A stretch of 64,000 nt of DNA from Gammaproteobacteria bacterium (GCA_965202895.1 OZ241901.1:3850770-3914769); one strand, 5' to 3'; shown: positions 3,605-57,072, counted from the first letter of the stretch. Notes: a model not told the origin generated them from the sequence alone. Numbers and translations: made by a program.

Positions 3605-3847
3605 CGTTTCACCCCGACCGATTCGCGGCCAAGTGCCAATCAATGCCCACCGCTCCTCCTGGGAACGCTTGTGTCCCGCCCGCAAATGGGATGGCAAGAC
3701 CACTGCGGACCGATGCGGGCGGGACACAAGCGTTCCCAGGACGCCCGCATCCGTGGAAGGCGTCGTTCCCAGGACCTCCACCGCCCCGATCCGACCGAAC
3801 CGGGTTCGCCCGCGCGAACCGATCCCGCAGCGTGAACCGGCCCTGCC
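3605..3847 (+). repeat. type-2 composite palindromic (REP/BIME-like) element
   Basis: Left arm: gtttcaccccgaccgattcgcggcc...caatgcccaccgc. Central long hairpin: tgggaacgcttgtgtcccgcccgca...tgcgggcgggacacaagcgttccca. Right arm: ...gaaccgggttcgcccgcgcgaaccgatcccgcagcgtgaacc. Homologous copies lie at 33335, 42717 and 56895. Confidence 0.7.
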
Positions 3848-18431: not shown

Positions 18432-18736
18432 CCCGGGCGCTGTTCGTAACCTCTTGATATAGCGGGTGGAGATCGGGGTTCGAGATATCTTTTACCCCCA
18501 CGGAGACGGCGTTCTTCCGTGGTTTGGGTTCGGTTCGAGGGGGTTGCTGGCGGATTTCACCCACGGAGCCACTTGCGCGGGCACGGCGTCCTGGGAACGC
18601 TTGTGTCCCGCCCGCAAATGGGACGGCGAGGCCGCCGCCGATCAATGCGGGCGGGACGCCCGCGTTCCCAGGACGCCATGCCCAAGAGCGTTCGCGAGAG
18701 GCATGCCCGACGAAAACCCCACAGCGCACATGCCTC
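18432..18736 (+). repeat. type-1 MITE-like repeat, copy A
   Basis: cccgggcgctgttcgtaacctcttgatatagcggg...long hairpin ggcgtcctgggaacgc...gcgttcccaggacgcc...cacagcgcacatgcctc. It has an imperfect terminal inverted repeat (G-GCGCTGT) and is about 80-90% similar by eye to copies B-F. Confidence 0.75.
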
Positions 18737-27792: not shown

Positions 27793-28077
27793 GGCATGTG
27801 CGCTGTAGGGATTTTCGCCAAACACGCCTCTCGCGAACGTTTTTGGGCACGGCGTCCTGGGAACGCGGGCGTCCCGCCCGCAAATGGGATGGCGAGGCCG
27901 CCGCCGAGCAATGCGGGCGGGACACAAGCGTTCCCAGGACGCCGTGCCCGCGCAAGAGGCTCCGTGGGGTGAAATCCGCCAGCAACCCTCTCGAACCGAC
28001 CTCGAACCACGGAAAAACGCCGTCTCCGTGGGGGTAAAAGATATCTCGACCTGCCTATATATCAATAACCTACGAAC
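27793..28077 (-). repeat. type-1 MITE-like repeat, copy B (inverted orientation)
   Basis: The reverse complement aligns end to end with copies A and C-F. Confidence 0.75.
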
Positions 28078-28431
28078 AGCGCCCGGGGCTCCAACACCGG
28101 CCGGCCCACGGATTGCCGGCCCGAGGACCGGCCGGAGCGAATGGTCCGTCCGGTTCGGCAGCCCGCGATCCGTCCGGTCCGAGTGAGGGCCGGGGAGGCG
28201 CCCTGGAACCCGGACGCGAGCGCTCGACGGATGAGGTCCGTGGAAGCCCGCGAAGGCCGGCCGCCGCGGCGGTCGCCCGGGGGAGGAGGCGGTTCGGTTC
28301 GTGCGAGCGCACGGTCCGCCCCCGCCGAGCTCGTGCCCGGGGCAGCGGGTAGCCGCGGCTCCGGCGCCGGACCGCGGCGAGGACGGGCGGAGGGGGAGGG
28401 CGAGGGGGCGGACTTCTCGGCGACCGGACGG

Positions 28432-29133: not shown

Positions 29134-29420
29134 CAGCCCTTCTTCGAGGTCCGGGACGCTGCGGCGATCATAACGGCCTCCGCGTCCGCGTCCGCCATGC
29201 TTCGCCGTGGCGGCTTCTCGTTCGCTGCCGCCGTCCCGCTCCCGCCGCCGGACCGGGAAGGCGCCCCGACCCCCCGGAGCGAGTGCAACGGCACGAATTC
29301 CGTCCGCGTCCCGACAGGAATCCCGTCCACGGTGAAACGACGGATCGATGCGCTACGCGACCAGGCGCCGACACGGACCGACGGGAATTCCGGAGGACGT
29401 CCCACAGGCTGTGGAGTGAG

Positions 29421-29678
29421 CCCCGCGCGCTGTTCGTAACCTCCTGATATAGAGGGTGCAGAGAGGGGGTCGAGATATTCCTTGCCCCACGGGGACGGGC
29501 TGACTCCACGGTTTCGGGGCGGTTCGTGGGTCTGGTTGGTGGATTTCACCTCATGGAGCCGCTTGCGCGGGCACGGCGTCCTGGGAACGCGGGCGGGACA
29601 CAAGCGTTCCCAGGACGCCGTGCCCAAGAACGTTCGCGAGAGGCGTGTTTGGCGAAAACCCCACCGCGCACATGCCTC
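29421..29678 (+). repeat. type-1 MITE-like repeat, copy C (central hairpin shortened)
   Basis: It shares the termini and flanking modules of the other copies. The inner loop of the hairpin is deleted. Confidence 0.7.
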
Positions 29679-29817: not shown

Positions 29818-32800
29818 ATGAACGGCAACCCTCCGCTATTCGAAGGGCAGGTTCTCACCGGCGAGCTCTTCGACGAGCCCATGCGGATCGAGACCATCCA
29901 TGCGAACGGCCCCGGCGCATGGGATGCCGGCCTGGTCGGGGTCCGGTCGGAACGGTTCCGTCGGGTCACGCTGACGGCCGAGGACGTCGCGAGCCTCACC
30001 GTCACCGACCGGACGCTCTCCTACGACGGCGATGCAAGGCTGCTCCGCCTCGGGCTCCAGGCGTACTCCCTCGGCATCGCCTACGAGTTCGACCCCTTCT
30101 TCGGCCTCTCCATCTCCCGCGTGGACCCTCTTCCCCACCAGCTCGAAGCGGTCTACGAACACCTCCTCAAGCTCCCCGCCGTGCGCTTCCTCCTCGCCGA
30201 CGACGCCGGCGCCGGCAAGACCGTGATGGCGGGGCTTCTCGTCCGGGAGCTCAAGCTCCGGGGCCTCGCCGAACGGATCCTCGTCGTGTGCCCCGCGAAC
30301 CTCGCCTTCCAGTGGCAGCGCGAGCTCAAGGAGAAGTTCGACGAGAAGTTCCTCGTCTTCAAGGGCGGCGACGTCAGGGAACAGTTCGGCGTCAACCAGT
30401 GGCTCGAGCAGAAGCAGATCGTCACGTCGCTCGACCTTGCCAAACGCGGCGACGTCCTTCCGGGACTGCGGCAAGCGCACTGGGATCTGGTGATCGTGGA
30501 CGAGGCGCACCGGATGTCGGCGCGCGACGAAGCCCACAAGAGCCAGCGCTACCGGCTGGGCGAGCTGCTGCGCGACCGCGCCGATCACATCCTGCTGCTG
30601 ACCGCGACGCCCCACAAGGGCGATCCGCAGAACTTCACCCTGTTCCTCCAGCTCCTCGACCGCGATGCGTACGCGGACGTGCGCTCCATCCGGAAGGCGA
30701 TGGAGCGCCAGCGGGCGCCTTTCTACCTCCGCCGGACCAAGGAGGCGATGATCCATTTCCCGGAGCGCCGGGCGGACGGCCGTTGGGCGGCCCGACCCGT
30801 GTTCACGAAGCGGATCCCGCGCACCGCGAGCTTCGCCATCGACGGCGCGGAGCTCGACCTCTACCGGGAGGTGACGCAATTCGTGAAGCGACAGAGCCGG
30901 CGCGCCGCGGAGCGGCAGGACGACCCCAGGGCGCGGGCGGTCGGGTTCCTGATGTCCCTCTACCAGCGCCGCCTCGCCTCCAGCACCTGCGCCATGCGCC
31001 GCTCGCTCGAGAAACGGGCCGAACGGCTCGAAGACGGCCTCGCCCGAGCCGAGGACCTGGTGCGCACGGCTCCGCCCGGACTGCCCGATCCGGAAGACCT
31101 CGACGAGATGGAGGACGCCGAACGCGAGAGGATCGAACGGCAGCTCGATGCCGTCACCCTCGCCGGCAATGCGGCGCAGGTGCGCGAGGAGGTAGCCGAG
31201 CTCCGCCAGCTTGCCGCGAAGGCGAAGGAAGTCGAGGGCTCGGACGGCGAGGAGAAGCTCGGCCGGCTCGAGAAGATCATGCGCGAAGAAGGCTTCTTCG
31301 ACCGCCCCGATCAACGCCTCCTCCTCTTCACCGAGTTCACCGACACCCTCCGCTACCTGATGGGCCGGTTGGAGAGGTGGGGCTTCCGCGTCGGGTGCAT
31401 CCACGGCGGGATGAAACCCGGATCTCGCGACGAGCCGGGCACCCGGCTGTACGCGGAGCAGCGGTTCCGGGAAGGGGCCATCCAGGTGCTCATCGCCACC
31501 GAGGCGGCGGGCGAAGGGATCAACCTCCAGTGCTGCCACGTCCTGTTCAACTACGACATCCCCTGGAACCCCAACCGGCTCGAGCAGCGCATGGGGCGCA
31601 TCCACCGGTACGGCCAGCGGCAGGACTGCCTCATCTTCAACTTCGTCGCCGCCAACACGATCGAGGGGCGGGTGCTCGACCGCCTGCTCGCGAAGTTGCA
31701 GGAGATCCGGGACGCCCTCGACGACGACGCGGTCTTCAACGTGGTGGGCGAGGTGCTGCCCGGCGCCCAGGTGGAACGCGTGCTGCGGGACTACTACGCG
31801 GGCAGGCTGGGCGATGCCGACCTGGAAGATCGGCTCCTGAAGGACGTGGACGAAGCGCATTTCCGCTCGATCTGCCGGACGGCGCTGGAAGGTCTCGCGT
31901 CGAAGAAGCTCGACCTCGAGATGCTCGTGGAACGCCGGGCGCGAGCCCAGGAGCGGCGGGTCGTGCCGGAGACCATCGCGCGGTTCATGAGGGAGAGCGC
32001 CCGGGACGCGGGGCTTCCACTCGAACCGGTGGGGTCCCTGCCCCATGCCTTCGAGCCGGGACGGACCCCGGCGGCGCTGAAGGCGTTCGAACGGGAGGCA
32101 AGCGGGAAGACGGCGAGCCTCGCGGACCGCTATCCGCGTCTGTCGACGGACCGGGAGACGGCGGAGGAGCACGACCTCGAATGGGTGACCCCGGGACACC
32201 CGTTGTTCGAGGCCCTGCGCCGATGCAGCCTCGCGCGGGGGCGGGACGCCTTCTCCAGGGGCGCCTGCTTCCATTCCCTGGAGCACGAGGCGCCAGCCCG
32301 GCTCGATTTCTACCGGGCGCGGTTCGTGGACGGTCTCGGGCGCACCATCCACGAACGCCTCTTCACCGTGGAGCTCGTGCAGGGGAGGGCGCCGGCCCTG
32401 CGAGCCCCTGACGTCCTCGGGGACCTGAGCCCCGCGGCGACGCCCCCCGGCGTGCCGCCGCCTTCCATCGCTTCCTCGCCGGAGGAGACCCCGTGGCTCA
32501 ACGAGAATGCGTTGATGCGGCTGCTCCGCGAGGTGCGGAGGGAACGGGCCGCGGAGGTCGAGCGCATCGCCGGGCACGTCGATCTCTCGTTGACCGAGGT
32601 GTTGCAACGCACCGATGAGGAGATCGGGCGGGCGAGCGTGGACGTGGAGAAGGGAGTCGCCGGAGCGGAGGGCCGGCTCGTGCAGGCCGAGGCCCGGCAC
32701 TCCGAGGTTCTGGCGCGGCGCGAGAGGCGCCGCAAGGAGCTCGGGCAACAGCGCGCGGTCACCCTGCAGGGCGTCGAACGGATGGCGAGCGCCTTGGTGC

Positions 32801-33291
32801 TGCCCCACCCCGAACGCGGGTCCGAGGACGTGCGGCGCCTGAAGCCGAACCCCGAGACCGAGACGACGGCGATGGAGGTCGTCATGGAGTACGAGAGGGA
32901 GCAAGGACGGCAGGTCTACGACGTCCACAGGGAGAACCTCGGCTACGACGTGACCAGCCTCGATCTCGCGTCGGGCGAGCTGCGGCTGATCGAGGTGAAG
33001 GGGCTGGCCGCCCCGGCCGGGAGCATCCTGCTGACGCCGAACGAGCGCCGGGTGGCCGAGGATCGGCGCGACTGCTACTGGCTCTACGTGGTGACGGGCT
33101 GTGCGGCGGAGCCCGAGCTGCAGGAACCGATCAGGGACCCCGCCCGGTTCCCGTGGCATGAGGTCAGGAAGGTGCAGCACTACCGGCTGGACGTGGATGC
33201 GATGCGCGGGGGTCGGCCCGAAGCCGGCGCCGGCCGGGGGGCGACCGATCGATCCCGCCGCGCCGGAACCACCGGAAGGGGCGCGCCATGA
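29818..33291 (+). CDS. SNF2-family helicase with C-terminal DUF3883 (PD-(D/E)xK-like) domain
   Basis: LPHQLEAV...LADDAGAGKT (motif I), VIVDEAHR (motif II), LLLTATPHKG, then the helicase C-terminal region (LIATEAAGEGINLQ...WNPNRLEQRMGRIHRYGQ). The C-terminus is GYDVTSLDL...LRLIEVKG...LTPNERRVAE...YWLYVV. ATG 29818 is in frame in ORF 29482..33291. Confidence 0.9.
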   Translation: MNGNPPLFEGQVLTGELFDEPMRIETIHANGPGAWDAGLVGVRSERFRRVTLTAEDVASLTVTDRTLSYDGDARLLRLGLQAYSLGIAYEFDPFFGLSISRVDPLPHQLEAVYEHLLKLPAVRFLLADDAGAGKTVMAGLLVRELKLRGLAERILVVCPANLAFQWQRELKEKFDEKFLVFKGGDVREQFGVNQWLEQKQIVTSLDLAKRGDVLPGLRQAHWDLVIVDEAHRMSARDEAHKSQRYRLGELLRDRADHILLLTATPHKGDPQNFTLFLQLLDRDAYADVRSIRKAMERQRAPFYLRRTKEAMIHFPERRADGRWAARPVFTKRIPRTASFAIDGAELDLYREVTQFVKRQSRRAAERQDDPRARAVGFLMSLYQRRLASSTCAMRRSLEKRAERLEDGLARAEDLVRTAPPGLPDPEDLDEMEDAERERIERQLDAVTLAGNAAQVREEVAELRQLAAKAKEVEGSDGEEKLGRLEKIMREEGFFDRPDQRLLLFTEFTDTLRYLMGRLERWGFRVGCIHGGMKPGSRDEPGTRLYAEQRFREGAIQVLIATEAAGEGINLQCCHVLFNYDIPWNPNRLEQRMGRIHRYGQRQDCLIFNFVAANTIEGRVLDRLLAKLQEIRDALDDDAVFNVVGEVLPGAQVERVLRDYYAGRLGDADLEDRLLKDVDEAHFRSICRTALEGLASKKLDLEMLVERRARAQERRVVPETIARFMRESARDAGLPLEPVGSLPHAFEPGRTPAALKAFEREASGKTASLADRYPRLSTDRETAEEHDLEWVTPGHPLFEALRRCSLARGRDAFSRGACFHSLEHEAPARLDFYRARFVDGLGRTIHERLFTVELVQGRAPALRAPDVLGDLSPAATPPGVPPPSIASSPEETPWLNENALMRLLREVRRERAAEVERIAGHVDLSLTEVLQRTDEEIGRASVDVEKGVAGAEGRLVQAEARHSEVLARRERRRKELGQQRAVTLQGVERMASALVLPHPERGSEDVRRLKPNPETETTAMEVVMEYEREQGRQVYDVHRENLGYDVTSLDLASGELRLIEVKGLAAPAGSILLTPNERRVAEDRRDCYWLYVVTGCAAEPELQEPIRDPARFPWHEVRKVQHYRLDVDAMRGGRPEAGAGRGATDRSRRAGTTGRGAP

Positions 33292-33334
33292 ACCAAGCGC
33301 CTGAGCCCGCACGTGTGCGTTCCATCGCCAGGAT

Positions 33335-33590
33335 CGTTTCACGCTGCGGAATCGGTTCGCGGGGGTGAACCCGGTTCGGTCGAATCGGAGCGGCGAAGGT
33401 CCGGGGAACGGCGCCTCCCACGGATGCGGGCGTCCTCCGAACGCTTGTGTCCCGCCCGCAAATGGGGCGGCAAGACCGCCGCCGATCGATGCGGGCGAGA
33501 CACAAGCGTCCGGAGGACGCGCCGTTCCCAGGAAGAGCGGTGGGTATCGATGCCTGGCCGCGAGTCGGTCGGCGTGAAAGGGCCTTGGTT
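33335..33590 (-). repeat. type-2 composite palindromic element (inverted)
   Basis: cgtttcacgctgcggaatcggttcgcggggg...central hairpin cgaacgcttgtgtcccgcccgca...tgcgggcgagacacaagcgtccg...gtcggcgtgaaaggg. Confidence 0.7.
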
Positions 33591-33672
33591 CCATCGCGCG
33601 ACGGGGCGCCTCTGCGGTGCGGTGTAAGGCGTATGATGGCGGGGGTCCGTTTCCCACCGGGACACACTCGCC

Positions 33673-34419
33673 ATGAGCGCCCCCGCCACCATGCACACCG
33701 GCCCCCTCGGCTCCACCATCCACGTCCTCCGCGCCGACGCCGACACCATCGCCGAGCTCGCCGCCATCGACTGGAACCGCTGCTTCCGCCGGGTCTGCCT
33801 CGATCCGGTGCGCGGGATCATCACCCTGATGGCGCCTTCGTTCCGCCACGAAGACCTGTCTGAAATCATCGGCAACGTCGTGGACGATGTGGGGGACGCC
33901 ATCACCAGCGCCACGAAGGGGATCCGCAGCACCCGGCTTCGCGGGCGGGGCGAGCCGCCCGGCACGGGGATGGAGCCCGACTGCGCGTTCTACGTCGGCG
34001 AGCGCGCCAGAGGCTTTTACGTGGCCCGCGCCGAAGGGGAGGCGGCAGCCGACGCCTTCGTCGAGCGCACTGCGCCCGACTTGGTGGTGGAGGTCGAGAT
34101 CACGCACGCCGACGAGGGAAAGGCCGAGCGCTACGGCCAGATGGGGGTGCGGGAGCTGTGGCGGCTGCATGGGCGCAGAGGGACGAGGGAGCTGCGGGCG
34201 GACTTTCTGGCCCTGGGTCCCGGGAGGGCGCCGCGCCGGCTCGGCGCCTCGGTGGTGCTGGAAGGGCTGACCCCGGATGACGTCTGCGAGGCGGTGGAAG
34301 AGGTCGGGGCCGGCGAGACCCGCCGCCAACGGGCGGAGGCGGTGGCCCGCATCGTGCGCCGTCGGCGGCAGGCGAGCGCGCGGGTGCGGGAGGAGGCGGC
34401 GGCGTACTCCGTCCACTGA
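33673..34419 (+). CDS. Uma2 (DUF820) family putative PD-(D/E)xK endonuclease, paralog 1
   Basis: ...ITLMAPSFRHEDL..., GMEPDCAFYVG, APDLVVEVEITHADEGKAERYGQMGVRELWRLH. The pattern is the Uma2 signature (P..H / E-PD / D-x-V-E-V / K..Y...GV.EYW). Confidence 0.8.
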   Translation: MSAPATMHTGPLGSTIHVLRADADTIAELAAIDWNRCFRRVCLDPVRGIITLMAPSFRHEDLSEIIGNVVDDVGDAITSATKGIRSTRLRGRGEPPGTGMEPDCAFYVGERARGFYVARAEGEAAADAFVERTAPDLVVEVEITHADEGKAERYGQMGVRELWRLHGRRGTRELRADFLALGPGRAPRRLGASVVLEGLTPDDVCEAVEEVGAGETRRQRAEAVARIVRRRRQASARVREEAAAYSVH

Positions 34420-34485
34420 GGCGAGCGCGAGCCGCCGATCCTGCGAAGAAGACGGCGCCGGAAGGGGCGCGCCACGAAGAAAACG

Positions 34486-34803
34486 CCCCGGGCGCTGTTT
34501 GCAACCTCTTGATATAGCGGGTGGAGGTCGGGGGTCGAGATATTTTTTACCCTACGGGGACGGGCTGACTCCACGGTTTCGGGGCGGTTCGTGGGTCTGG
34601 TTAGCGGATTTCACCTCACGGAGCCGCTTGCGCGGGCACGGCGTCCTGGGAACGCTTGTGTCCCGCCCGCATTTTCTTCCGGGCGTATCGCTCTCGTGCG
34701 GGCGGGACACCCGCGTCTGGAAGACGCGCCGTTCCCAGGACGCCGTGCCCAAGAACGTTCGCGAGAGGCGTGTTTGGCGAAAGCCCCACAGCGCACATGC
34801 CTC
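34486..34803 (+). repeat. type-1 MITE-like repeat, copy D
   Basis: Full-length copy located in the spacer between Uma2 paralogs 1 and 2. Confidence 0.75.
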
Positions 34804-34879
34804 ATCGCACGGCGGGGCCTACGCGGTGCGGTGGAAGGCGTATGATGGGGGGTCCGCTTCCCACCGGGACACACTCGCC

Positions 34880-35620
34880 ATGAACGCCCCCGCCACCATG
34901 CACACCGGCCCCCTCGGCTCCACCATCCACGTCCTCCACGCCGACGCCGGCACCATCGCCGAGCTGGCCGCCATCGACTGGAACCGCTGTTTCCGCCGGG
35001 TCTGCCTCGACCCGGTGCGCGGGATCATCACCCTGATGGCGCCTTCGTTCCGCCACGACGATCTGGCCAGGATCCTGGACGATATCGTGGACATTGCCGG
35101 GAGTGCGACCGCCGGCGTATCGAAGGGGATCCGCAGCACCCGGCTTCGGGGACGGGGCGAGCCGCCCGGCACGGGGATGGAGCCCGATTGCGCGTTCTAC
35201 GTCGGCGAGCGCGCCAGAGGCTTCTACGCGGCCCGCGCCGAAGGGGAGGCGGCCGCCTTCGTCGAACGGACCGCGCCCGACCTGGTGGTGGAGGTCGAGA
35301 TCACGCACGCCGACGAGGGCAAGGCCGAACGCTACGGTGAGATGGGGGTGCGGGAGCTGTGGCGGCTGCATGGCCGCAAGGAGACGAGGGAGCTGCGGGC
35401 GGACTTCCTCGCCCTGGGTCCCGGGAGCGCGCCGCGCCGGCTCGACACCTCGGTGGTGCTGGAGGGGCTGACCCCGGATGACGTCTGCGAGGCGGTGGAA
35501 GAGGTCGGGGCCGGCCAGACCCACAGCCAACGGGCGGAGGCGGTGGCCCGCATCGTGCGCCGTCGGCGGCAGGCGAGCGCGCGGGTGCGGGAGGAGGCGG
35601 CGGCGTACTCCGTCCACTGA
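34880..35620 (+). CDS. Uma2 (DUF820) family putative endonuclease, paralog 2
   Basis: MNAPATMHTGPLGSTIHVLHADAGT... It is collinear with paralog 1. The ATG is in frame in ORF 34277..35620. Confidence 0.8.
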   Translation: MNAPATMHTGPLGSTIHVLHADAGTIAELAAIDWNRCFRRVCLDPVRGIITLMAPSFRHDDLARILDDIVDIAGSATAGVSKGIRSTRLRGRGEPPGTGMEPDCAFYVGERARGFYAARAEGEAAAFVERTAPDLVVEVEITHADEGKAERYGEMGVRELWRLHGRKETRELRADFLALGPGSAPRRLDTSVVLEGLTPDDVCEAVEEVGAGQTHSQRAEAVARIVRRRRQASARVREEAAAYSVH

Positions 35621-35786
35621 GGCGAGCGTGAGACACCGATCCTGCGAGGAAGACGGCGTCGGAAGGGGCGCGCCATGAACGAAGGGCCTGAACACGCACG
35701 TGTGCGTTCCATCGCGCGGCGGCGCTTGCGCGGTGCGGTGGAAGGCGTATGATGGCGAGTGTCCGTTTCCCGCCGGGACCCCCGCC

Positions 35787-36527
35787 ATGAACGCCCCCGC
35801 CACCATGCACACCGGCCCCCTCGGCTCCACCATCCACGTCCTCCACGCCGACGCCGGCACCATCGCCGAGCTCGCCGCCATCGACTGGAACCGCTGTTTC
35901 CGCCGGGTCTGCCTCGACCCGGTGCGCGGGATCATCACCCTGATGGCGCCCTCCCGTCTCCATGAGGACCTGTCCGAGATTCTCGGTGACATCGTGAAAG
36001 GCGCGGGAAACGCCATCGCCACCAAGAGCATCGGCAGCACCCGGCTTCGGGGACGGGGCGAGCCGCCCGGTACGGGGATGGAGCCCGATTGCGCGTTCTA
36101 CGTCGGCGAGCGCGCCAGAGGCTACTACGCGGTCCAGGCCGAAGGGGAAGCGGCCCTGGACGCCTTCGTTGAGCGCACCGCGCCCGACCTGGTGGTCGAG
36201 GTCGAGATCACGCACGTCGATGAGAGCAAGATCGAGCGATACGGTGAGATAGGGGTGCGGGAGCTGTGGCGGTTGCACGGGCGCAGAGGGACGAGGGAGC
36301 GGCGGGCGGATTTCCTCGCCCTGCGGGCCGGGAGGGCGCCGCGCCGGCTCGACGCCTCGATGGTGCTGGAAGGGCTGACCCCGGATGACGTCTGCGAGGC
36401 GGTGGAAGCGGTCGGGACCAGCCTGACCCACGACCAACGGACGGAGGCGGTGGCCCGAATCGTGCGCCGTCGGCGGCAGGCGAGCGTGCGGGTGCGGGAG
36501 GAGGCGGCGGCGTACTCCGTCCACTGA
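35787..36527 (+). CDS. Uma2 (DUF820) family putative endonuclease, paralog 3
   Basis: Same architecture as paralogs 1 and 2. The ATG is in frame in ORF 35700..36527. Confidence 0.8.
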   Translation: MNAPATMHTGPLGSTIHVLHADAGTIAELAAIDWNRCFRRVCLDPVRGIITLMAPSRLHEDLSEILGDIVKGAGNAIATKSIGSTRLRGRGEPPGTGMEPDCAFYVGERARGYYAVQAEGEAALDAFVERTAPDLVVEVEITHVDESKIERYGEIGVRELWRLHGRRGTRERRADFLALRAGRAPRRLDASMVLEGLTPDDVCEAVEAVGTSLTHDQRTEAVARIVRRRRQASVRVREEAAAYSVH

Positions 36528-36593
36528 AACGAGCGCGACCCGCCGGTCATGCGAAGAAGATGGCTTTGGAAGGGGCGCGCCATGAAGAAGGAG

Positions 36594-36911
36594 CCCCGGG
36601 CGCTGTTTGTAACCTATTGATATAGCGGGTGGAGATCGGGGTCGAGATATTCTTTACCCCCACGGAGACGGCGTTCTTCCGTGGTTTGGGTTCGGTTCGA
36701 GGGGGTTGCTGGCGGATTTCACCCCGCGGAGCCGCTTGCGCGGGCACGGCGTCCTGGGAACGCTTGTGTCCCGCCCGCATTTTCTTCCGGGTGCATCGCT
36801 CTCGTGCGGGCGGGACGCCCGCGTCTGGAAGACGCGCCGTTCCCAGGATGCCGTGCCCAAGAACGTTCGCGAGAGGCGTGTTTGGCGAAAGCCCCACAGC
36901 GCACATGCCTC
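36594..36911 (+). repeat. type-1 MITE-like repeat, copy E
   Basis: Full-length copy located in the spacer between Uma2 paralogs 3 and 4. Confidence 0.75.
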
Positions 36912-36988
36912 ATCGCACGGCGGCGCCTTCCGCGGTGCGGTGGAAGGCGTATGATGGCGGGTGTCCGTTTCCCACCGGGACCCCCGGC

Positions 36989-37735
36989 ATGAACGCCCCC
37001 GCCACCATGCACACCGGCCCCCTCGGCTCCACCATCCACGTCCTCCACGCCGACGCCGGCACCATCGCCGAGCTCGCCGCCATCGACTGGAACCGCTGTT
37101 TCCGCCGGGTCTGCCTCGACCCGGTGCGCGGGATCATCACCCTGATGGCGCCATCGTTCCCCCACGACGACCTGTCCGAAATCATCGGCGACGTCGTGAA
37201 AGACGCGGGAAGCGCCATCGCCGGCGTCATCAAGAGCATCGGCAGCACCCGGCTTCGGGGACGGGGCGAGCCGCCCGGCACGGGGATGGAGCCCGACTGC
37301 GCGTTCTACGTCGGCGAGCGCGCCAGAGGCTTTTATGCGGCCCGCGCCGATGGGGATGCGGCGGCCCTCGCCTTCGTCGAGCGCACCGCGCCCGACCTGG
37401 TGGTCGAGGTCGAGATCACGCATGTCGATGAGAGCAAGATCGAGCGCTACGGTGAGATGGGGGTGCGGGAGCTGTGGCGGTTGCACGGGCGCAAAGGGAC
37501 GAGGGAGCTGCGGGCGGACTTCCTCGCCCTGCGGGCCGGGAACGATCCGCGCCGGCTCGACGCTTCGGTGGTGCTGGAAGGACTGACCCCGGATGACGTC
37601 TGCGAGGCGGTAAAGGCGGTCGGGGACAGCCAGGCCCGCGACCAACAGACGGAGGCGGTGGCCCGCATCGTGCGCCGGCGGCGGCAGGCGAGCGCGCGGG
37701 TGCGGGAGGAGGCTGCGGCGTACTCCGTCCACTGA
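36989..37735 (+). CDS. Uma2 (DUF820) family putative endonuclease, paralog 4
   Basis: Same architecture as the other paralogs. The ATG is in frame in ORF 36629..37735. Confidence 0.8.
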   Translation: MNAPATMHTGPLGSTIHVLHADAGTIAELAAIDWNRCFRRVCLDPVRGIITLMAPSFPHDDLSEIIGDVVKDAGSAIAGVIKSIGSTRLRGRGEPPGTGMEPDCAFYVGERARGFYAARADGDAAALAFVERTAPDLVVEVEITHVDESKIERYGEMGVRELWRLHGRKGTRELRADFLALRAGNDPRRLDASVVLEGLTPDDVCEAVKAVGDSQARDQQTEAVARIVRRRRQASARVREEAAAYSVH

Positions 37736-37913
37736 GGCGAGCGCGACCCGCACCCTGTACAATCGACGGACCTCGGGCGCACGGGGTGCTGAAGAAGATG
37801 GAATCGAAGGAGGTTCTCCGCCGTGTGCCGAAACCATCGGAAGGGGCGCTCGCCACGAGCGGAATACCCCCCCGACCCGTACCATGACCAACCAACCACG
37901 GAGGCCAGGAGAC

Positions 37914-38120
37914 ATGGCTGATCACATACTGACGACCCGCGCGGTCCGACGACCGTACCAGACCTTCCCTGCCATGCCGGATCACGTTCGGTATGATCCC
38001 GGAAGGGGTTATTGGCTCAAAGACGGAGAGCCGCTGGTCGCTGCGCCCGATTTCTTGAGCGACATTTCCAACAGCAAGAAGTGTGATCAGGAAACAGGAG
38101 AGGATCAGAAAGGCGAATGA
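37914..38120 (+). CDS. small ORF (68 aa; 78 aa from ATG 37884), candidate substrate/precursor peptide of the downstream ATP-grasp
   Basis: GGAGG (37900-37904) lies 9 nt before ATG 37914. The stop overlaps the next start (ATGA at 38117-38120). The C-terminal tail FLSDISNSKKCDQETGEDQKGE is rich in Ser/Thr, Lys and Asp/Glu. There is no homology evidence. Confidence 0.4.
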   Translation: MADHILTTRAVRRPYQTFPAMPDHVRYDPGRGYWLKDGEPLVAAPDFLSDISNSKKCDQETGEDQKGE

Positions 38121-39079
38121 ATCCCCGTGTTCTCATACTTTCAGGCCTGTACGATTTTTCGGCGGACCTCGTTGCCTTGCGGCTGCGACACAGCGGAGCG
38201 CCTTATATCCGCCTGAATAGAGAACAGCTTGCCGATCATTCACTTACGCTCGATCCCCTCGTCCCCGAGCTGACCATACGTGGCCCGGCAGGCACCTGCA
38301 ACGTGGGTCAGGATCTGCGATCCATCTGGTTCCGCCAACCCGTTTTCTTGCGAAATACCCCTCCGACCCCGCTTTCGCTCCAGGATCAGTTTGAACGTTC
38401 TCAATGGACGGCCTTTCTTCGGGCGCTATGTGTCTTCCGCGACGCGGCTTGGATGAATTTTCCGGCCGCCACGTATCTTGCGGAATCCAAACCGTATCAG
38501 CTATCCATTGCATCCAGTTGCGGATTTCAGGTTCCGGAAACGCTGGTGACCAACGATGCACATCGCATCCGTAGCGCGTTTCCAGGAACTCTCGTCATCA
38601 AATCGCTGGACACGGTGTTGCTGCGTGATGGAGACGACTGTCTGTTCACCTATACGACCCTGGATCCGGAAAATGAATTAACGGAAGAAAACATCAATAC
38701 GGCGCCCCTGCTCGCACAATATGCCTTGGAAGACAAGATCGATCTGCGAGTCACCGTGATCGGCGATGAGATATTCGCGGTCCGTATACTTTCGCATGGA
38801 TCCGGGATTCCCGGCGACTGGCGTTTGATACCGAAAGCCGATCTTGAATACGAGGACTTTGCGCCGACCGAAGATATGGCTCGATGCTGCTTCCTGTTGA
38901 CACGCCGTCTTGGTCTTTCCTTTTCCGCCATCGATCTGATTGAAACCACCCAAGGGATATTTTTCATCGAAGTCAATCCTACCGGGGAATGGGGATGGCT
39001 ATCAACGCCTGAGCGGCCAATGGATCGCGCCATAGCTTCCTGGCTGGAGAATCCTTCCTGTGCGAAGGAGTGGAGCTGA
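38117..39079 (+). CDS. ATP-grasp enzyme, microviridin-type (MdnB/C, MvdC/D-like) peptide ligase family
   Basis: 320 aa. The segments ESKPYQLSIASSCGFQVPETLVTND, DLRVTVIGDEIFAV, GDWR and FSAIDLIETTQGIFFIEVNPTGEWGWL match, from memory, the conserved blocks of graspetide maturases (..LRITIVG..IF.., DWR, AIDMI....IFLEINPVGEF.WL). The gene lies in AT-richer DNA. Confidence 0.85.
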   Translation: MNPRVLILSGLYDFSADLVALRLRHSGAPYIRLNREQLADHSLTLDPLVPELTIRGPAGTCNVGQDLRSIWFRQPVFLRNTPPTPLSLQDQFERSQWTAFLRALCVFRDAAWMNFPAATYLAESKPYQLSIASSCGFQVPETLVTNDAHRIRSAFPGTLVIKSLDTVLLRDGDDCLFTYTTLDPENELTEENINTAPLLAQYALEDKIDLRVTVIGDEIFAVRILSHGSGIPGDWRLIPKADLEYEDFAPTEDMARCCFLLTRRLGLSFSAIDLIETTQGIFFIEVNPTGEWGWLSTPERPMDRAIASWLENPSCAKEWS

Positions 39080-39084
39080 TTCCG

Positions 39085-39708
39085 ATGCGTATTCCTCGGT
39101 TTCTTGAAGAGATATTCCCCTTTGTCAGTTATCTCGTATACTCTCGCCGCCTGAGACGACGTAGTGAATCGGGAGAAATCCTGAGCGAGAGAGAATTCAA
39201 AAACTACATCGATCTTTCCGAAGACATGATCAAGGAAAGATTGAAGGAGGAACACCAGCGGGCGTCGACGATGGATGAGAAGACATCGAAGTTGACGTTT
39301 TCAATTTCCATGGCACTGACTTTCGTTGGAGCCGCGGTAGTCTTCTTGAAAAATACCATATCTCCCGTCGCTATGCAGGCCGGTCTTTCCGTGCTGATAA
39401 ATTCCCTGATCTTCCTCGGTTTGTTTTATAGCACAATGGCTGGTCTGGTGGCGCTGGGCGCGCTGCGTACTGCGCCCCGGCACGGTTACGGCACCCAATT
39501 CTTGCTGGAACAGAATAAGCCCATGAATGAGAAATTGGCGGAATCCCTTGCTCGTCAGGAAGTCATCAACCTTGTTCGGCATTTACGCAATGAAGCAGCC
39601 TTTCAGTGTTTGAGAAACGGTCTTTTGCTCTTTATCGTAGTGATCATGATGTTTACGGGAATTTTCGTATGGCGGTTTCTTTCTGCGTTCTCATTGAGCA
39701 TTAGTTGA
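39085..39708 (+). CDS. multi-pass membrane protein (hypothetical; effector- or transporter-like)
   Basis: GGAG lies 8 nt before ATG 39085, and the track gives GTG 39070 as an alternative start. The N-terminal ~65 aa are charged and soluble. Hydrophobic segments follow: LTFSISMALTFVGAAVVFL, LSVLINSLIFLGLFYSTMAGLVALGAL and LLLFIVVIMMFTGIFVWRFLSAF. The TGA at 39706-39708 directly abuts the next ATG. Confidence 0.65.
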   Translation: MRIPRFLEEIFPFVSYLVYSRRLRRRSESGEILSEREFKNYIDLSEDMIKERLKEEHQRASTMDEKTSKLTFSISMALTFVGAAVVFLKNTISPVAMQAGLSVLINSLIFLGLFYSTMAGLVALGALRTAPRHGYGTQFLLEQNKPMNEKLAESLARQEVINLVRHLRNEAAFQCLRNGLLLFIVVIMMFTGIFVWRFLSAFSLSIS

Positions 39709-42708
39709 ATGATCCCCAAGGCGTGCAAGCGGCTGGCGGAGGTCGATTTCCCCATCGCCGAGGTCTCGCGGCACGCGGCGCGGGAGAAGTCGATCCGGCA
39801 CGGGCATCCTTCGACCCTGCATCTGTGGTGGGCGCGCCGCCCGCTGGCCTCCTCGCGGGCGGTGCTGATGGCGCTGCTGCTGCCGGACCCCTGCGACCCG
39901 CAATGCCCGGAGGCGTTCAGGAAGGAGGCGCGGCGGATCCTTCTCGGGATGCACGGGCGTCCGGGTGGATGGACCGGCGCCATCCGGTCGGACGAAGGGT
40001 TGCGGCGGATCCTTCTCAAGTTCATCGCCGACTTCGCCGATTGGGACCATGCCGCGGATCGCATCTGGCTCGATACGGGCCGCGCGCTGGTGAGGGCGGC
40101 GCACGGCGAGGGGCCGCCTCTGGTCGTGGATCCGTTCGCGGGCGGCGGCTCGATCCCGCTCGAAGCCCTGCGGCTCGGCTGCGAGGCGTTCGCCAGCGAC
40201 CTGAACCCGGTCGCCTGCCTGATCCTCAAGGTGATGCTGGAGGACGTCCCGCGCCACGGGCCGGGGCTGGCCGACGAGCTGCGCAGGGTCGGCGGCGAGA
40301 TCAGGCAGGCGGCGGAACGGGAACTGGCCGGTCTCTACCCCGCGGACCTGGACGGGAGCACGCCCATCGCCTACTTGTGGGCGCGCACGGTGCTCTGCGA
40401 GGCCCCGAGCTGCGGGGCGGAGATCCCGCTGCTGCGTTCGCTGTGGCTTGCGAAGAAGGCGGTCTTCAGGAGGGAGCGCGGCGAGCGGATCAAGGTCAGA
40501 GGCCGTCAGGCGCTTCGGTATCGGATCGTGCGAGCGGCCAAGGGGCCGCCGCGGGTCGAGTGGGAAGTGTTCGAGCCGGCCACCGACAAGGACGTGCGCG
40601 ACGGCACGGTCACGCGGGCGAAGGCCGCCTGCCCGTGCTGCGGCGCGGTCCTGCCGCCGGAGCGGGTGCGGGTGCAGCTCTCCGAGCAGCGCGGCGGCGC
40701 GGACATGATCTTCGACGGCAAAGGGAGGCGCATCGGCGGCGCGCGCATGACCGCGGTGGTGACGCTGAAGGAGAACGAGCCGGGCCGGCGCTATCGGCTG
40801 CCGACGGATGCCGATTATGCGGCGGTGCACGAGGCGCAGGCGCGGCTGGCAGGGATTCTCGACGAATGGGAGCGGGGCGGGAGGCAGGGGCTTTGCCCGG
40901 TGCCGGATGAACCGATTTCGCTGAACGAGATTCGACGCATCAGCGTACCAATCTACGGAATGACGACATGGGGGGACCTGTTCACGGCGCGGCAGAAGGT
41001 AGTCTTGGTCGAACTCCTCCTCGCCATCCGGAAAACCGATGTAGTCGACACGGAGCATATGCTCGCCTGTGCGTTCAACCGTATATCCATGAGCAACATG
41101 TCTTGCACTCGATGGAACGCTGTAGCAGAGAAGATGCAGCATACCTTTGGCCGGCAAGCTCTTCCCATCGTGTGGGATTTCGCCGAGATCGCAGTGACGG
41201 CGGAAGCTCCAGGTAACTGGAAAAGTGGATACTGTCTTGTAGCTGACGTTGTCGACGCGGCGCGTAGTATGCAGAGTGCGCAAACTCAATTCGCCGACGC
41301 AATAGAACATCCCCTGCCCGACGAAGCCGCCGGAGTCTGGTTCACCGATCCACCCTACTACGATGCCGTCCCGTATGCGCACTTGTCGGATTTCTTCTTC
41401 GTCTGGCTCAAGCGCGCCGTGCCGGAACAAATGATGACTCTTTGCAATCTCGTCGATCCGCAAGACTTGACTCCGAAGGAAAGGGAGATTGTCGTTGATC
41501 GACCGCATCGGCTCAGCACTTCGACCAAGACGGCAGAGACCTACGAATCAGGAATGGCTCGGGCGTTTACCGAAGGGCGACGTATCCTGCACCAGGACGG
41601 TATCGGATCGGTCGTCTTCGCCCACAAGACAACCGAGGGCTGGGAGGCTCTGCTGACCGGGATAATCAGCGGCGGTTGGACCATTACCGGCTCGTGGCCG
41701 GTAGCGACGGAGATGGGTTCTCGTCTCAATGCCCGTGATACCGCGTCCCTCGCCACCAGCGTCCATCTCGTCTGCCGGCCTCGGCCCGACGACGCGCCGG
41801 TGGGCGATTGGGCGGACGTGCTGCGCGAGCTGCCGAGGCGCGTGGGCGACTGGATGGAGCGGCTTCAGGGCGAGGGCGTGCGCGGGGCGGATCTGGTCTT
41901 CGCCTGTATCGGCCCGGCGCTGGAGATCTTCAGCCGGTACTCGGTCGTCGAGACGCCGGAAGGTGCGGAAGTCCGTCTGCCCGTCTACTTGGAACGGGTC
42001 TGGGAGGTGGTGGGCCGGACCGCGCTCGAGACCGTGCTCGGCGCCGGAGAGGCGAAGGCCCGCAACGGGCAGGTCGGCGCGCTGGAGGAGGACGCCCGCC
42101 TCACGGCCCTGTTCCTCTGGACCCTCCAGAGCACGGAGGACCCCGAGGAGAACGACGCGAAGGAAGCACGGGACGAGGAAGGGAACGAAGCGGGCAGGGG
42201 GCTCGCGCTCCCCTTCGACGTGGTGCGCCGTTTCGCCCAGCCCATGGGGATCGACCTCGACGCCTGGACGGACCGGATCATCGGACAGGACAAGGGGGTG
42301 GTGCGCCTGCTGCCGGTTCTCGAACGTGCGCAACGGCTCTTCGGCGAGGACGGGGCCGGTGCGGCGGCGGAATGGATCGAAGCGGACCCGGGCGGGGCTG
42401 CCCAGCTCGACCTCTTTCCCTCGGCGCAGGCCCGACCGCGAAGCAGGAGGCATCGCCGACGCAAGCCGTCCATCGTGGAAGACGGCGCCGAGCTTCAGGC
42501 GGTCGACGCGACGACGCTGGATCGCGTCCATGCGGCCATGCTCCTCCAGGCAAGCGGTCACGCCAATGCGCTCAGGACGCTGATCGCCGCGGAGCAGGAA
42601 CGCGGCCCGGACTTCCTGCGGCTCGCCAACTCGCTCTCGGCCCTGTACTCGAGAGGCAGCGAGGAGAAGCGGTTGCTCGACGCGATGCTGCTGGCGGTCC
42701 CCCGGTGA
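39709..42708 (+). CDS. DUF1156 (COG1743-like) DNA methyltransferase with Zn-ribbon
   Basis: N-terminus: FPIAEVSRHAAREKSIRHGHPSTLHLWWARRP. SAM motif I: VVDPFAGGGSIPLEA. Cys pairs: CEAPSCG...CPCCG. Catalytic motif: TDPPYYD. Confidence 0.9.
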   Translation: MIPKACKRLAEVDFPIAEVSRHAAREKSIRHGHPSTLHLWWARRPLASSRAVLMALLLPDPCDPQCPEAFRKEARRILLGMHGRPGGWTGAIRSDEGLRRILLKFIADFADWDHAADRIWLDTGRALVRAAHGEGPPLVVDPFAGGGSIPLEALRLGCEAFASDLNPVACLILKVMLEDVPRHGPGLADELRRVGGEIRQAAERELAGLYPADLDGSTPIAYLWARTVLCEAPSCGAEIPLLRSLWLAKKAVFRRERGERIKVRGRQALRYRIVRAAKGPPRVEWEVFEPATDKDVRDGTVTRAKAACPCCGAVLPPERVRVQLSEQRGGADMIFDGKGRRIGGARMTAVVTLKENEPGRRYRLPTDADYAAVHEAQARLAGILDEWERGGRQGLCPVPDEPISLNEIRRISVPIYGMTTWGDLFTARQKVVLVELLLAIRKTDVVDTEHMLACAFNRISMSNMSCTRWNAVAEKMQHTFGRQALPIVWDFAEIAVTAEAPGNWKSGYCLVADVVDAARSMQSAQTQFADAIEHPLPDEAAGVWFTDPPYYDAVPYAHLSDFFFVWLKRAVPEQMMTLCNLVDPQDLTPKEREIVVDRPHRLSTSTKTAETYESGMARAFTEGRRILHQDGIGSVVFAHKTTEGWEALLTGIISGGWTITGSWPVATEMGSRLNARDTASLATSVHLVCRPRPDDAPVGDWADVLRELPRRVGDWMERLQGEGVRGADLVFACIGPALEIFSRYSVVETPEGAEVRLPVYLERVWEVVGRTALETVLGAGEAKARNGQVGALEEDARLTALFLWTLQSTEDPEENDAKEARDEEGNEAGRGLALPFDVVRRFAQPMGIDLDAWTDRIIGQDKGVVRLLPVLERAQRLFGEDGAGAAAEWIEADPGGAAQLDLFPSAQARPRSRRHRRRKPSIVEDGAELQAVDATTLDRVHAAMLLQASGHANALRTLIAAEQERGPDFLRLANSLSALYSRGSEEKRLLDAMLLAVPR

Positions 42709-42716
42709 CCAGGGTC

Positions 42717-43060
42717 CTTTCATGCCGACCGACTCGCGGCCGGGCATCAATGCCCACCGCTCTTCGTGGGAACGGCGTGTCCTTCGGACGCGGGGGTCCT
42801 GCCCACATCGATCGGCGGCGGTTTTGCCCTCCCATTGAAGGTGCGCCGCCGATCCTCGTCACCCGGATCCGACGCCCGCATCGATCGGCGGCGGTCTTGC
42901 CGTCCCATTTGCGGGCGGGACGCCCGCGTTCCGCAGGACGCGCCGTTCCCAGGACGCCCGCATCCGTGGGAGGCGCCGTCCCCGGCACCTTCGCCGCTCT
43001 CATTCGACCGAACCGGGTTCACCCCCGCGAACCGATTCCGCGGCGTGAAACGACCCTGCC
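42717..43060 (+). repeat. type-2 composite palindromic element (extended, two hairpin modules)
   Basis: cctttcatgccgaccgactcgcggcc...catcaatgcccaccgc...gcgggcgggacgcccgcgttcc...ccgaaccgggttcacccccgcgaaccgattccgcggcgtgaaacg. Confidence 0.7.
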
Positions 43061-43077: not shown

Positions 43078-43379
43078 GCTCGGGCGATGTTCGTAGATTA
43101 TTGATATATAAAGTGTAGAGAGGGGGTCGAGATATTTTTTACCCCCACAGAGATGGCGTTGTTCCGTGGTTTGGAGTCGGTTCGAGGGGCATTTCGGCGG
43201 ATTTCACCCCACGGAGCCTCTTGCGCGGGCACGGCGTCCTGGGAACGCGGGCGTCCCGCCCGCATTTTCTTCCGGGCGCTTCGCCCCCGTGCGGGCGGGA
43301 CGCCCGCGTTCCCAGGACGCCGTGCCCAAGAGCGTTCGCGAGAGGGTGCCCGGCGAAAACTCCACAGCGCGCATGCCTC
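43078..43379 (+). repeat. type-1 MITE-like repeat, copy F
   Basis: Full-length copy lying immediately after the type-2 element and upstream of the DUF499 gene. Confidence 0.75.
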
Positions 43380-43512
43380 GTCCCCCGGTGACGAAATGAC
43401 AGGCAGATGAAAAGACTGCACAATGCGTGAGGCAGCGGCGCGCATATCGGGCCGGCGAAGCTGCGGACGTTCGAGCCGTTCCCGCGTGAAGCCAGCCGAA
43501 CCGGAGATCCGA

Positions 43513-56894: not shown

Positions 56895-57072
56895 CCGCGC
56901 TTCCTGGGAACGCTTGTGTCCCGCCCGCAAGTGGGACGGCAAGACCACCGCCGATCGATGCGGGGGGGATGTCCGCGTTCCCAGGAAGCGCCGTTCCCAG
57001 GACCTTCACTGCCCTGATCGGCCGAACCGGTTTCATCCACGCTAGCCAGTTCCGCGGCGTGAAACGACCTTG
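56895..57072 (+). repeat. type-2 palindromic element, partial (hairpin plus right arm)
   Basis: cctgggaacgcttgtgtcccgcccgcaagtggg...gcgttcccagg...gaaccggtttcatcc...ttccgcggcgtgaaacgacc. Confidence 0.65.

Follow-up and report, generated by a model that had tools for sequence, protein, structure and literature searches.

What are four tandem copies of a Uma2 (DUF820) gene doing inside a defence locus? Uma2 is a large, structurally solved protein family for which we found no experimentally established function in the literature searched, and whose cassettes of paralogous genes have been noted since 2009 and left unexplained. The stretch studied here, 64,000 nucleotides (nt) of DNA from a Gammaproteobacteria bacterium (GCA_965202895.1 OZ241901.1:3850770-3914769; hereafter the window), carries four such genes, g1 to g4, between the helicase gene hmaA and the methylase gene hmaB of what is apparently a complete Hma system (hmaA, hmaB and hmaC). 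An earlier, sequence-only reading of the window had proposed that the array supplies nuclease or specificity modules to this system, and that its localised variability reflects diversifying selection. Our analysis leads us, with some reserve, to favour a different answer, namely that the four genes are autonomous cargo at the Hma hotspot, members of a multi-copy Uma2 subfamily that were duplicated locally and reshuffled by gene conversion, whose variable patches are under relaxed constraint and whose role, as we infer it, is a stand-alone one.

Four Uma2-like genes in the hmaA-hmaB interval

The four genes, which were delimited by open reading frame (ORF) listing and frame tracing, are all intact (coordinates of these and other features are collected in Table 1) and are separated by spacers of 460, 166 and 461 nt. 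Their products are 85-89% identical to g1. Tracing and alignment bear out the initial description of tandem ORFs of 246-248 amino acids (aa) with shared ends and core motifs, as the N-terminus, the C-terminus and the motifs GMEPDCAFYVG and APDLVVEVEITH are near-identical in g1-g4. Upstream of each gene lies a conserved leader that, by blastn, is 86-93% identical among the four array copies and 77-87% identical to its counterparts at three other loci (L002, L003 and L004; loci outside the window are given such numbers throughout). Judged from its sequence, this leader may act as a promoter for each copy, and a scan for consensus promoters and terminators found nothing above chance within the array and did not call the leader. 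Since each copy has its own conserved leader and the spacers span 166-461 nt, there is no sign of translational coupling.

The proposed assignment to the Uma2 nuclease-like family holds at the level of profile, fold and core residues. All four proteins pass the Pfam gathering cut-off for Uma2 (PF05685), albeit narrowly (28.0-31.6 bits against a cut-off of 27), with the match covering protein residues 46-168 and positions 18-133 of the 172-position profile. An AlphaFold2 (AF2) model of g1 built on a diverse 59-sequence alignment has a mean predicted local distance difference test score (pLDDT) of 94.3 and a predicted template modelling score (pTM) of 0.90, whereas the 106 close homologues alone gave an unusable model (pLDDT 44). 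The model adopts the restriction-endonuclease-like (PD-(D/E)xK) fold of Uma2/DUF820. When it was compared with the PDB using Foldseek, six matches were obtained at E <= 0.001 (entries 9y1l, 1wdj, 6okh and 3ot2), followed by 3ijm; the top seven matches, all with probability 1.0 and target-normalised template modelling (TM) scores of 0.51-0.62, are uncharacterised Uma2/DUF820-type structures. The residues that are near-invariant in the wider subfamily (G13, S14, R40, D44, G48, P55, H59, R88, E101, D103, Y107, G109, P135, D136, E140, D147, K150, G158, E161 and W163) are all present in g1-g4, with residue 60 being E or D, and the acidic/lysine core (E...D...D-x3-E...K) is kept as E/D60, E101, D103, D136, E140, D147 and K150. 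By these signatures the four proteins look like active PD-(D/E)xK-type enzymes and each would be a Mg2+-dependent nuclease, with catalytic roles assigned provisionally to the individual core residues. Nuclease activity is an inference, as no biochemically characterised Uma2 protein was found in the literature and PDB entry descriptions searched.

The array lies in the interval between helicase and methylase genes, as had been reported, but the methylase gene does not adjoin it, since a second embedded cassette, of low G+C content, intervenes. Four Uma2 genes and the three ORFs of that cassette thus make seven ORFs embedded between hmaA and hmaB. Embedding of this kind is common: Payne et al. 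2024 (bioRxiv 10.1101/2024.01.29.577857) found embedded genes in 62.7% of 1,485 Hma systems, and Liu et al. 2024 (PMC11232893) found insertions in ~66.5% of Hma systems, with a hotspot between hmaA and hmaBC. The latter study also showed that, in a characterised Hma system, the C-terminal PD-(D/E)xK domain of HmaA is an essential nickase. As HmaA of the window has a NOV_C nuclease domain at its C-terminus, Hma needs no additional nuclease.

Variable patches, mosaicism and growth of the array

Of the 57 codons that are variable or gapped in the array, 20 fall within residues 56-85 (patch 1; 6.9 expected, hypergeometric p = 4.5e-8) and 10 within residues 209-221 (patch 2; 3.0 expected, p = 3.4e-5). 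The differences had been described as clustering in two short patches (residues ~57-85 and ~215-226), both of which emerge here as significant clusters, but two weaker clusters, at residues 115-129 (p = 0.008) and 181-194 (p = 0.02), had been overlooked. Over the 106 close homologues, mean column entropy is 1.17 bits for residues 209-221, 0.92 for 115-129, 0.87 for 56-85 and 0.74 for 181-192, with low regions at 86-114 (the EPD strand; 0.09 bits) and 193-208 (0.20 bits).

Placed on the AF2 model by secondary structure and helical periodicity, patch 1 corresponds to the long core helix α1 (residues 57-78) and the turn that follows. Entropy along this helix has a periodicity of 95-100 degrees per residue, with positions 57/58, 63/64, 67/68, 71/72 and 75/76 forming a variable face and H59, D61, L62, I65, V70 and G74 a fixed one. 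Patch 2 corresponds to a loop, together with helix ends, between two C-terminal helices. Variability is therefore predicted to be confined to surface elements, namely one face of α1, the 115-129 helical hairpin, the 181-194 loop and the 209-221 inter-helix loop. Mapping the patches onto a predicted Uma2 fold, which the sequence-only reading had suggested, thus puts them on predicted surface elements, with the variability of patch 1 on a single exposed α1 face.

The copies are mosaics. Over their first 135 nt, g2, g3 and g4 are 99-100% identical, yet the patch 1 DNA of g2 is 96% identical to a copy from another species (L003_5146) and only 68-78% identical to that of its array neighbours. The middle section of g3 is 98% identical to copies at L001 and L005, and the nearest neighbour of g4 changes along the length of the gene. 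Haplotypes of patch 1 recur in other species with the same codons, and the arrays of the window, L002 and L003 each mix different patch 1 classes. These comparisons show that the copies have been reshuffled by patchwise gene conversion, with the 5′ 135 nt homogenised within the array and patch 1 consisting of old alleles shared across species.

To gauge selection, the ratio of nonsynonymous to synonymous change (omega) was estimated by the Nei-Gojobori method within the array, and from proportions of nonsynonymous and synonymous differences (pN/pS) as well as tree-based counts for 37 close copies of the family. Whole-gene omega is 0.36-0.53 over all these estimates, with pairwise values of 0.37-0.53 within the array, and the fetched loci hold 71 intact subfamily copies, a frameshift-like split at only two loci and a few fragments. 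The genes g1-g4 are intact and under purifying selection. Within the array, omega is 0.28 outside the patches (pS 0.13, pN 0.04), 0.54 in patch 1 (pS 0.43, pN 0.23) and ~5 in patch 2 (pS 0.05, pN 0.26), the last resting on ~14 nonsynonymous and 1-2 synonymous changes (p ~0.08 in a binomial test against neutrality done by hand). For the 37 copies, pN/pS is 0.50 in patch 1, 0.72 at residues 115-129 and 0.77 in patch 2, against 0.41 overall; the tree-based values are 0.49 (56-85), 0.54 (115-129) and 0.76 (209-221), against 0.17-0.28 elsewhere. The other arrays, pooled, give 0.48 for patch 1 and 0.56 for patch 2. The patches are thus less constrained than the protein core, and the expectation, set out beforehand, that their dN/dS would exceed background was confirmed. 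The diversifying selection proposed for them was not: among the 37 copies no region or site has an omega significantly greater than 1, no site survives correction for multiple testing, and the high value in patch 2 appears in the window array alone. In patch 1 of the array, synonymous and nonsynonymous divergence are both raised, and this elevated pS, together with the haplotypes shared across species, points to mosaic gene conversion of old alleles. A diversity-generating or otherwise targeted mutagenesis was considered and rejected by eye, as the patches contain mixed substitution types and haplotypes common to several genomes.

The array also bears traces of how it grew. The last 19-56 nt of hmaA recur ~40 nt past g1, g2 and g3 (four matches in a motif search, with 0.38 expected), which indicates that tandem duplication on the spot, of a unit containing the hmaA end, enlarged the array. 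The motif GGAAGGGGCGCGCC was considered as a general attachment site for cassettes and rejected, because the window has it at the end of hmaA and past g1-g3 but nowhere else, and L054 at the end of hmaA alone; so confined, it marks local tandem duplication. L054, which comes from a related strain (~94% DNA identity), has hmaA followed by a new variant, a g1-like copy (99%) and a third copy cut by the contig end. When L054 8627-11543 is compared with window positions 33673-35620, the patch 1 of the first variant (SEIIGNVVGAAASATVGAMKGIR) is absent from the window, and the third copy carries SEIIGNVVGAAASATVGAMKGIR again. Close strains thus differ in which copies they have and in how these are ordered.

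The subfamily within and beyond Hma loci

The subfamily is multi-copy and dispersed in its hosts and mostly lies away from Hma. Clustering at 90% identity leaves more than 120 clusters with 77% or higher identity to g1, several of them on one contig, and 53 genomic loci turned up when one genome was scanned per species. These belong to uncultured Gammaproteobacteria (including metagenome-assembled genomes (MAGs) of Thiotrichales and Ectothiorhodospiraceae), to Vicinamibacterales and other Acidobacteria, and to one Spirochaetia MAG. Several of the source MAG names (CAR2_bin, COS_bin, Langseth) resemble those of what we take to be sponge-metagenome bins. OZ241870.1 alone has 8 loci with at least 12 intact copies between them, 70-96% identical to one another, and tblastn finds 9 copies in OZ242023.1. 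Sets of 2-3 copies, in tandem or within a few kb, occur at L007, L013, L023, L029, L033, L037, L039, L040 and L041. Acidobacterial copies form one clade and gammaproteobacterial copies another. The cross-phylum identity of 67-76% is similar to that between paralogues within a genome (70-96%), which suggests that horizontal transfer took place long ago and that each lineage then expanded its copies.

Dispersed copies resemble one another from ~10-100 nt before the start codon to ~16 nt past the stop codon, and homology ends there. No terminal repeats and no transposase or integrase belonging to the Uma2 unit were noticed, although terminal inverted repeats and target-site duplications were not the object of a dedicated search. 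No relatives of the subfamily were found in IMG/VR or among GenBank phages, and only distant cyanobacterial Uma2 proteins on plasmids, in collections where these symbiont lineages are poorly represented; the searches lent no support to carriage by phages or plasmids. A fold search among viral proteins also gave no match. Across Vicinamibacterales species, copies are kept at orthologous positions. At L029, L037, L038, L039 and L041 (~10750-11950) and L033 (7583-8722) of that group, a conserved gene of 369-379 aa directly follows the first Uma2 gene of the array. It probably encodes a member of the alanine dehydrogenase/PNT family (matched by 7 neighbours overall) and is often followed by a DUF4143/AAA_14 ATPase (PADLOC PDC-S01-like), in a locus that is kept across several species.

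The company that the copies keep is largely metabolic. At 50 loci, 118 immediate neighbours match 120 Pfam families, among them alanine dehydrogenase/PNT, peptidase M28, PrpD, solute-binding proteins and AMP-binding enzymes, with a few HipA, PemK and DUF4143 ATPases. PADLOC matches among these neighbours are few; those to Hma models come from L002, L003 and L005 only, and one weaker match to the HmaA model is the DISARM DrmD helicase in L036. Within 10 kb, Hma genes are lacking at more than 40 of the 53 loci, and such genes stand beside Uma2 copies only in the lineage of the window (L002, L003, L005 and L054). L002 and L003 share the order uma, hmaC, uma, a 120-aa N-terminal fragment of HmaB, uma, whereas L005 has a truncated hmaA, uma and an HEC-04-like ATPase gene. 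The HmaB fragment of L002 is 95% identical to HmaB of the window, and the full-length HmaB of L002 is only 68% identical to it. Transposases lie near these remnants (IS1595 in L002, Transposase_31 in L003), and at all three loci the Uma2 genes are intact although parts of Hma are truncated.

Among 31 metagenomic loci with relatives of HmaA (32-72% identity), neither tblastn nor a hidden Markov model of the subfamily found a single member (this search covered the subfamily only), and in ~9 of the 31 hmaA and hmaB stand 0.5-4 kb apart with no subfamily gene between them. The recurrence of Uma2 arrays beside DUF1156/DUF499 loci, which had been named in advance as a check, was thus not seen for this subfamily outside the array's own lineage. 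Among the PADLOC models, g1 matches none for HmaA, HmaB or HmaC, and only PDC-S17.

Other features of the window bear less directly on the array. The cassette between g4 and hmaB has a G+C content of 54%, in a window of ~70%, and has relatives in none of the fetched loci; possible identities are a peptide cluster of the graspetide type and a new defence candidate embedded in Hma. The g1-g2 and g3-g4 spacers each contain a ~320-nt repeat resembling miniature inverted-repeat transposable elements (MITE) or repetitive extragenic palindromic (REP) sequences. Six full copies are found in the window, with no credible match in Rfam and only short fragments matching the loci of other species. We considered and rejected that the repeat belongs to the Uma2 unit or serves as an attachment site, as four copies lie away from Uma2 genes and none in the g2-g3 spacer; it is a separate dispersed intergenic element. 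At unrelated metagenomic Hma loci (L055, L059 and L074), fragments of the HmaA C-terminus (query residues ~1071-1129, 70-76% identical) lie 1.2-1.3 kb downstream of hmaA and bracket small embedded cassettes, for instance ORFs that by eye resemble HEPN-domain genes. Such fragments may be the footprint of cassette entry at the hotspot at the 3′ end of hmaA, and the repetition of the last 19-56 nt of hmaA after g1-g3 is a parallel in the window.

Table 1 Positions of features in the window and at related loci
Feature	Position	Strand	Remarks
g1, Uma2-like gene	33673-34419	+	intact ORF, 248 aa; Pfam Uma2 30.8 bits
g2, Uma2-like gene	34880-35620	+	intact ORF, 246 aa; Pfam Uma2 31.6 bits
g3, Uma2-like gene	35787-36527	+	intact ORF, 246 aa; Pfam Uma2 30.6 bits
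g4, Uma2-like gene	36989-37735	+	intact ORF, 248 aa; Pfam Uma2 28.0 bits
Conserved leader upstream of g3	35701-35786	+	~86 nt; possible -10 box TATGAT
Leader copies of g1, g2, g4	33588-33663, 34803-34870, 36911-36986	+	blastn
hmaA 3′ end and 37 nt downstream	33272-33328	+	direct-repeat families D9, D11; local alignments
Repeats of hmaA-end sequence after g1, g2, g3	34458-34487, 35659-35715, 36566-36595	+	
Related 30 nt after g4	37818-37849	+	
hmaA, SNF2 helicase	29818-33291	+	PADLOC HmaA 4e-169; Pfam SNF2-rel_dom, Helicase_C, NOV_C (residues 1015-1101, C-terminal nuclease domain)
hmaB, DUF1156 methylase	39709-42708	+	PADLOC HmaB 3e-105; Pfam DUF1156
hmaC, DUF499 ATPase	43411-46290	+	PADLOC HmaC 4.7e-89; Pfam DUF499
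Second embedded cassette, between g4 and hmaB	37884-39708	+	54% GC, three ORFs; GC profile
78-aa ORF of low-GC cassette	37884-38120	+	overlaps start of next gene
ATP-grasp ribosomal-peptide-maturase-like gene	38117-39079	+	TIGR04187 3.3e-50, full length, below curated cut-off
212-aa membrane-like ORF of low-GC cassette	39070-39708	+	directly upstream of hmaB
~320-nt MITE/REP-like repeat, g1-g2 spacer	34485-34812	+	internal imperfect hairpin
~320-nt repeat, g3-g4 spacer	36593-36920	+	
~320-nt repeat, full copy	18432-18736	+	
~320-nt repeat, full copy	27793-28089	-	
~320-nt repeat, full copy	29420-29678	+	upstream of hmaA
~320-nt repeat, full copy	43081-43388	+	between hmaB and hmaC
~320-nt repeat, partial copies	3657-3745, 33429-33533, 42764-42958, 56899-56929		
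Window-type Hma remnant	L002 12996-13358		beside intact Uma2 copy
Window-type Hma remnant	L003 12930-13162		beside intact Uma2 copy
Window-type Hma remnant	L005 8200-9735		beside intact Uma2 copy
HmaA C-terminus fragment	L055 2983-3159		
HmaA C-terminus fragment	L059 2416-2577		
HmaA C-terminus fragments	L074 1705-1878 and 2899-3063		

Cargo, component or selfish gene

The history that we favour runs as follows. Lineage-specific, multi-copy predicted nucleases of the Uma2/DUF820 family would have settled at the hmaA-hmaB hotspot as cargo and not as components of Hma. Tandem duplication in place, of a unit carrying the last 19-56 nt of hmaA, enlarged the array, and patchwise gene conversion then reshuffled its copies. 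Each protein may work alone as a toxin-like or defence-like effector, as the "solo toxin" cassettes described for the family and "guilt by embedding" suggest, and the variable surfaces may tune specificity for a partner, for a substrate or for self-association, under relaxed constraint rather than strong positive selection.

Several observations weigh against this reading. The terms nuclease, toxin and defence, as applied to Uma2, are all deduced, the literature searched having yielded no experimentally characterised member. The match of g1 to PDC-S17 is only a local 34-residue motif (residues 131-164, E = 2.6e-9), and patch 2 of the window array has the nominal omega of ~5 given above. SNF2-type defence helicases lie within ~5 kb of copies at five loci (PbeA/SNF2 at L012, DpdE at L021, DrmD at L034 and L036, and a BrxH-like helicase at L053), and the HEC-04-like ATPase gene adjoins a copy at L005. 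By a rough estimate made by hand, ~15% of independent loci are close to SNF2 defence helicases where a few per cent would be expected, a modest enrichment, and a looser functional tie of Uma2 copies to SNF2-based defence could exist. Finally, three related species (window, L002, L003/L005) have Uma2 genes set among their hma genes; we ascribe this to shared ancestry, but a functional link would give the same pattern.

The interleaving of Uma2 and hma genes, which extends to L054, also speaks for the proposal that the paralogues are nuclease or specificity modules of Hma, each endowing the helicase-methylase-ATPase machine with a different target recognition. The position of the array between hmaA and hmaB, the restriction of variation to surfaces and the copies near other SNF2 defence helicases at five further loci would all fit. 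We nevertheless consider this improbable. HmaA brings a NOV_C nuclease domain of its own, the PADLOC definition of Hma comprises HmaA, HmaB and HmaC only, and the array occupies a known insertion hotspot. Most copies are far from any Hma gene, none occurs at the 31 other Hma loci, and at L002, L003 and L005 the Uma2 genes remain intact beside truncated hmaA or hmaB. Individual leaders, spacers of 166-461 nt without sign of translational coupling and the lack of any family-level omega above 1 argue in the same direction. The copies could also be selfish multi-copy genes, for example addictive solo toxins or homing-like nucleases, that pile up at permissive intergenic sites such as the Hma hotspot and bring host defence no benefit; this we regard as unlikely. 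In its favour, copies are dispersed beside unrelated metabolic genes, their homology ends so near the coding sequence that the unit is essentially a naked gene, and they cross phyla at 67-76% identity, similar to paralogues within a genome. At L002, L003 and L005 they lie beside IS1595, Transposase_31 and truncated hmaA or hmaB, and Steczkiewicz et al. 2012 reported mobile-element contexts for Uma2 in Gammaproteobacteria. What speaks against selfish spread is that no terminal repeats, transposase or integrase of the unit were noticed (terminal repeats not having been the object of a dedicated search), that IMG/VR and GenBank phages yielded no relatives and plasmids only distant cyanobacterial Uma2, that nearly all copies are under purifying selection (omega ~0.4) with few pseudogenes, and that orthologous positions are kept across Vicinamibacterales species.

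The variable surfaces invite a further interpretation, in which the tandem and dispersed copies serve as a reservoir, gene conversion assembles new surface variants from it, above all of the α1 face, and balancing or diversifying selection maintains the allelic classes for recognition of different invaders or inhibitors. Patch 1 classes do reappear in different species, codon for codon, whereas within each array the flanks have been homogenised, the arrays of the window, L002 and L003 combine different classes, and omega is highest in the patches, reaching ~14 nonsynonymous against 1-2 synonymous changes in patch 2 of the window array. Even so, omega is below 1 in every patch over the 37 copies and in the other arrays, no target is known, and conversion tracts blocked by local divergence, coupled with relaxed constraint on the surface, fit the data too; we give this interpretation little credence. 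Its bolder form, a conversion-driven repertoire of defence or toxin nuclease surfaces in which old α1-face classes persist across species and are reassorted in arrays, and which is shared horizontally between Gammaproteobacteria and Acidobacteria and acts as a variable recognition system rather than as redundant paralogues, seems to us a long shot as well. We therefore retain, as the best available account, autonomous cargo that was duplicated locally and reshuffled by conversion. The locus offers a compact test case, with four intact variants that differ mainly on defined surface patches at an insertion hotspot for defence genes. Such a setting could reveal if the proteins of the family act alone, as anti-phage or toxin nucleases, and what their variable surfaces recognise, and it cautions that a gene inside a defence operon need not be part of that system.

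Both halves of this picture, Uma2 paralogue cassettes and the embedding of genes in Hma, are already in the literature. The array proteins share the fold of Uma2/DUF820/TT1808 (PF05685, COG4636; 1wdj, which is TT1808, 3ot2, 6okh and 9y1l), match the Pfam family above threshold, keep the PDLVVEV...D..K...GV.E.W core motif of canonical Uma2 and have in common with it many paralogues per genome and cassettes of paralogous genes. They nevertheless form a divergent branch. The Pfam match reaches no more than 28-32 bits, a phmmer search started from g1 retrieved only 584 of 1.84 billion representatives (E <= 0.001), and comparison of sequences with solved structures gives E = 0.0018 at best. At ~248 aa they are longer than the solved Uma2 proteins (146-186 residues), adding C-terminal helices H201-213 and H217-247, the second of which bears an RRRR motif, and they occur in MAGs of uncultured Gammaproteobacteria and Vicinamibacterales rather than in the cyanobacteria and Thermus of canonical Uma2.

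Makarova et al. 2009 (PMC2701414) considered Uma2 to be probably a solo toxin, present mostly as cassettes of paralogous genes, and Omelchenko et al. 2005 and Steczkiewicz et al. 2012 described lineage-specific expansions of the family and mobile-element contexts in Gammaproteobacteria. Like such solo toxins and nucleases related to type II toxin-antitoxin systems, the array genes are small, stand-alone genes of nuclease fold that occur in many copies, both scattered and in cassettes, and a few subfamily copies adjoin HipA or PemK/MazF genes. They differ from a type II toxin-antitoxin pair in that the repeated Uma2 unit has no conserved partner ORF that could serve as an adjacent antitoxin. 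As for the HEC and PDC candidates found embedded in Hma (Payne 2024; Liu 2024 PMC11232893), the parts of the Payne 2024 text and supplements available to us contain no mention of Uma2, DUF820 or PF05685, and those supplements hold nothing usable on the identity of PDC-S17; the screen allowed at most three embedded ORFs per pair of hma genes, and the window has seven. Like those candidates, the array genes have hmaA and hmaB on either side, in an Hma system that is otherwise complete, and they belong to a family that is frequent outside Hma too, as those authors expect of independent systems.

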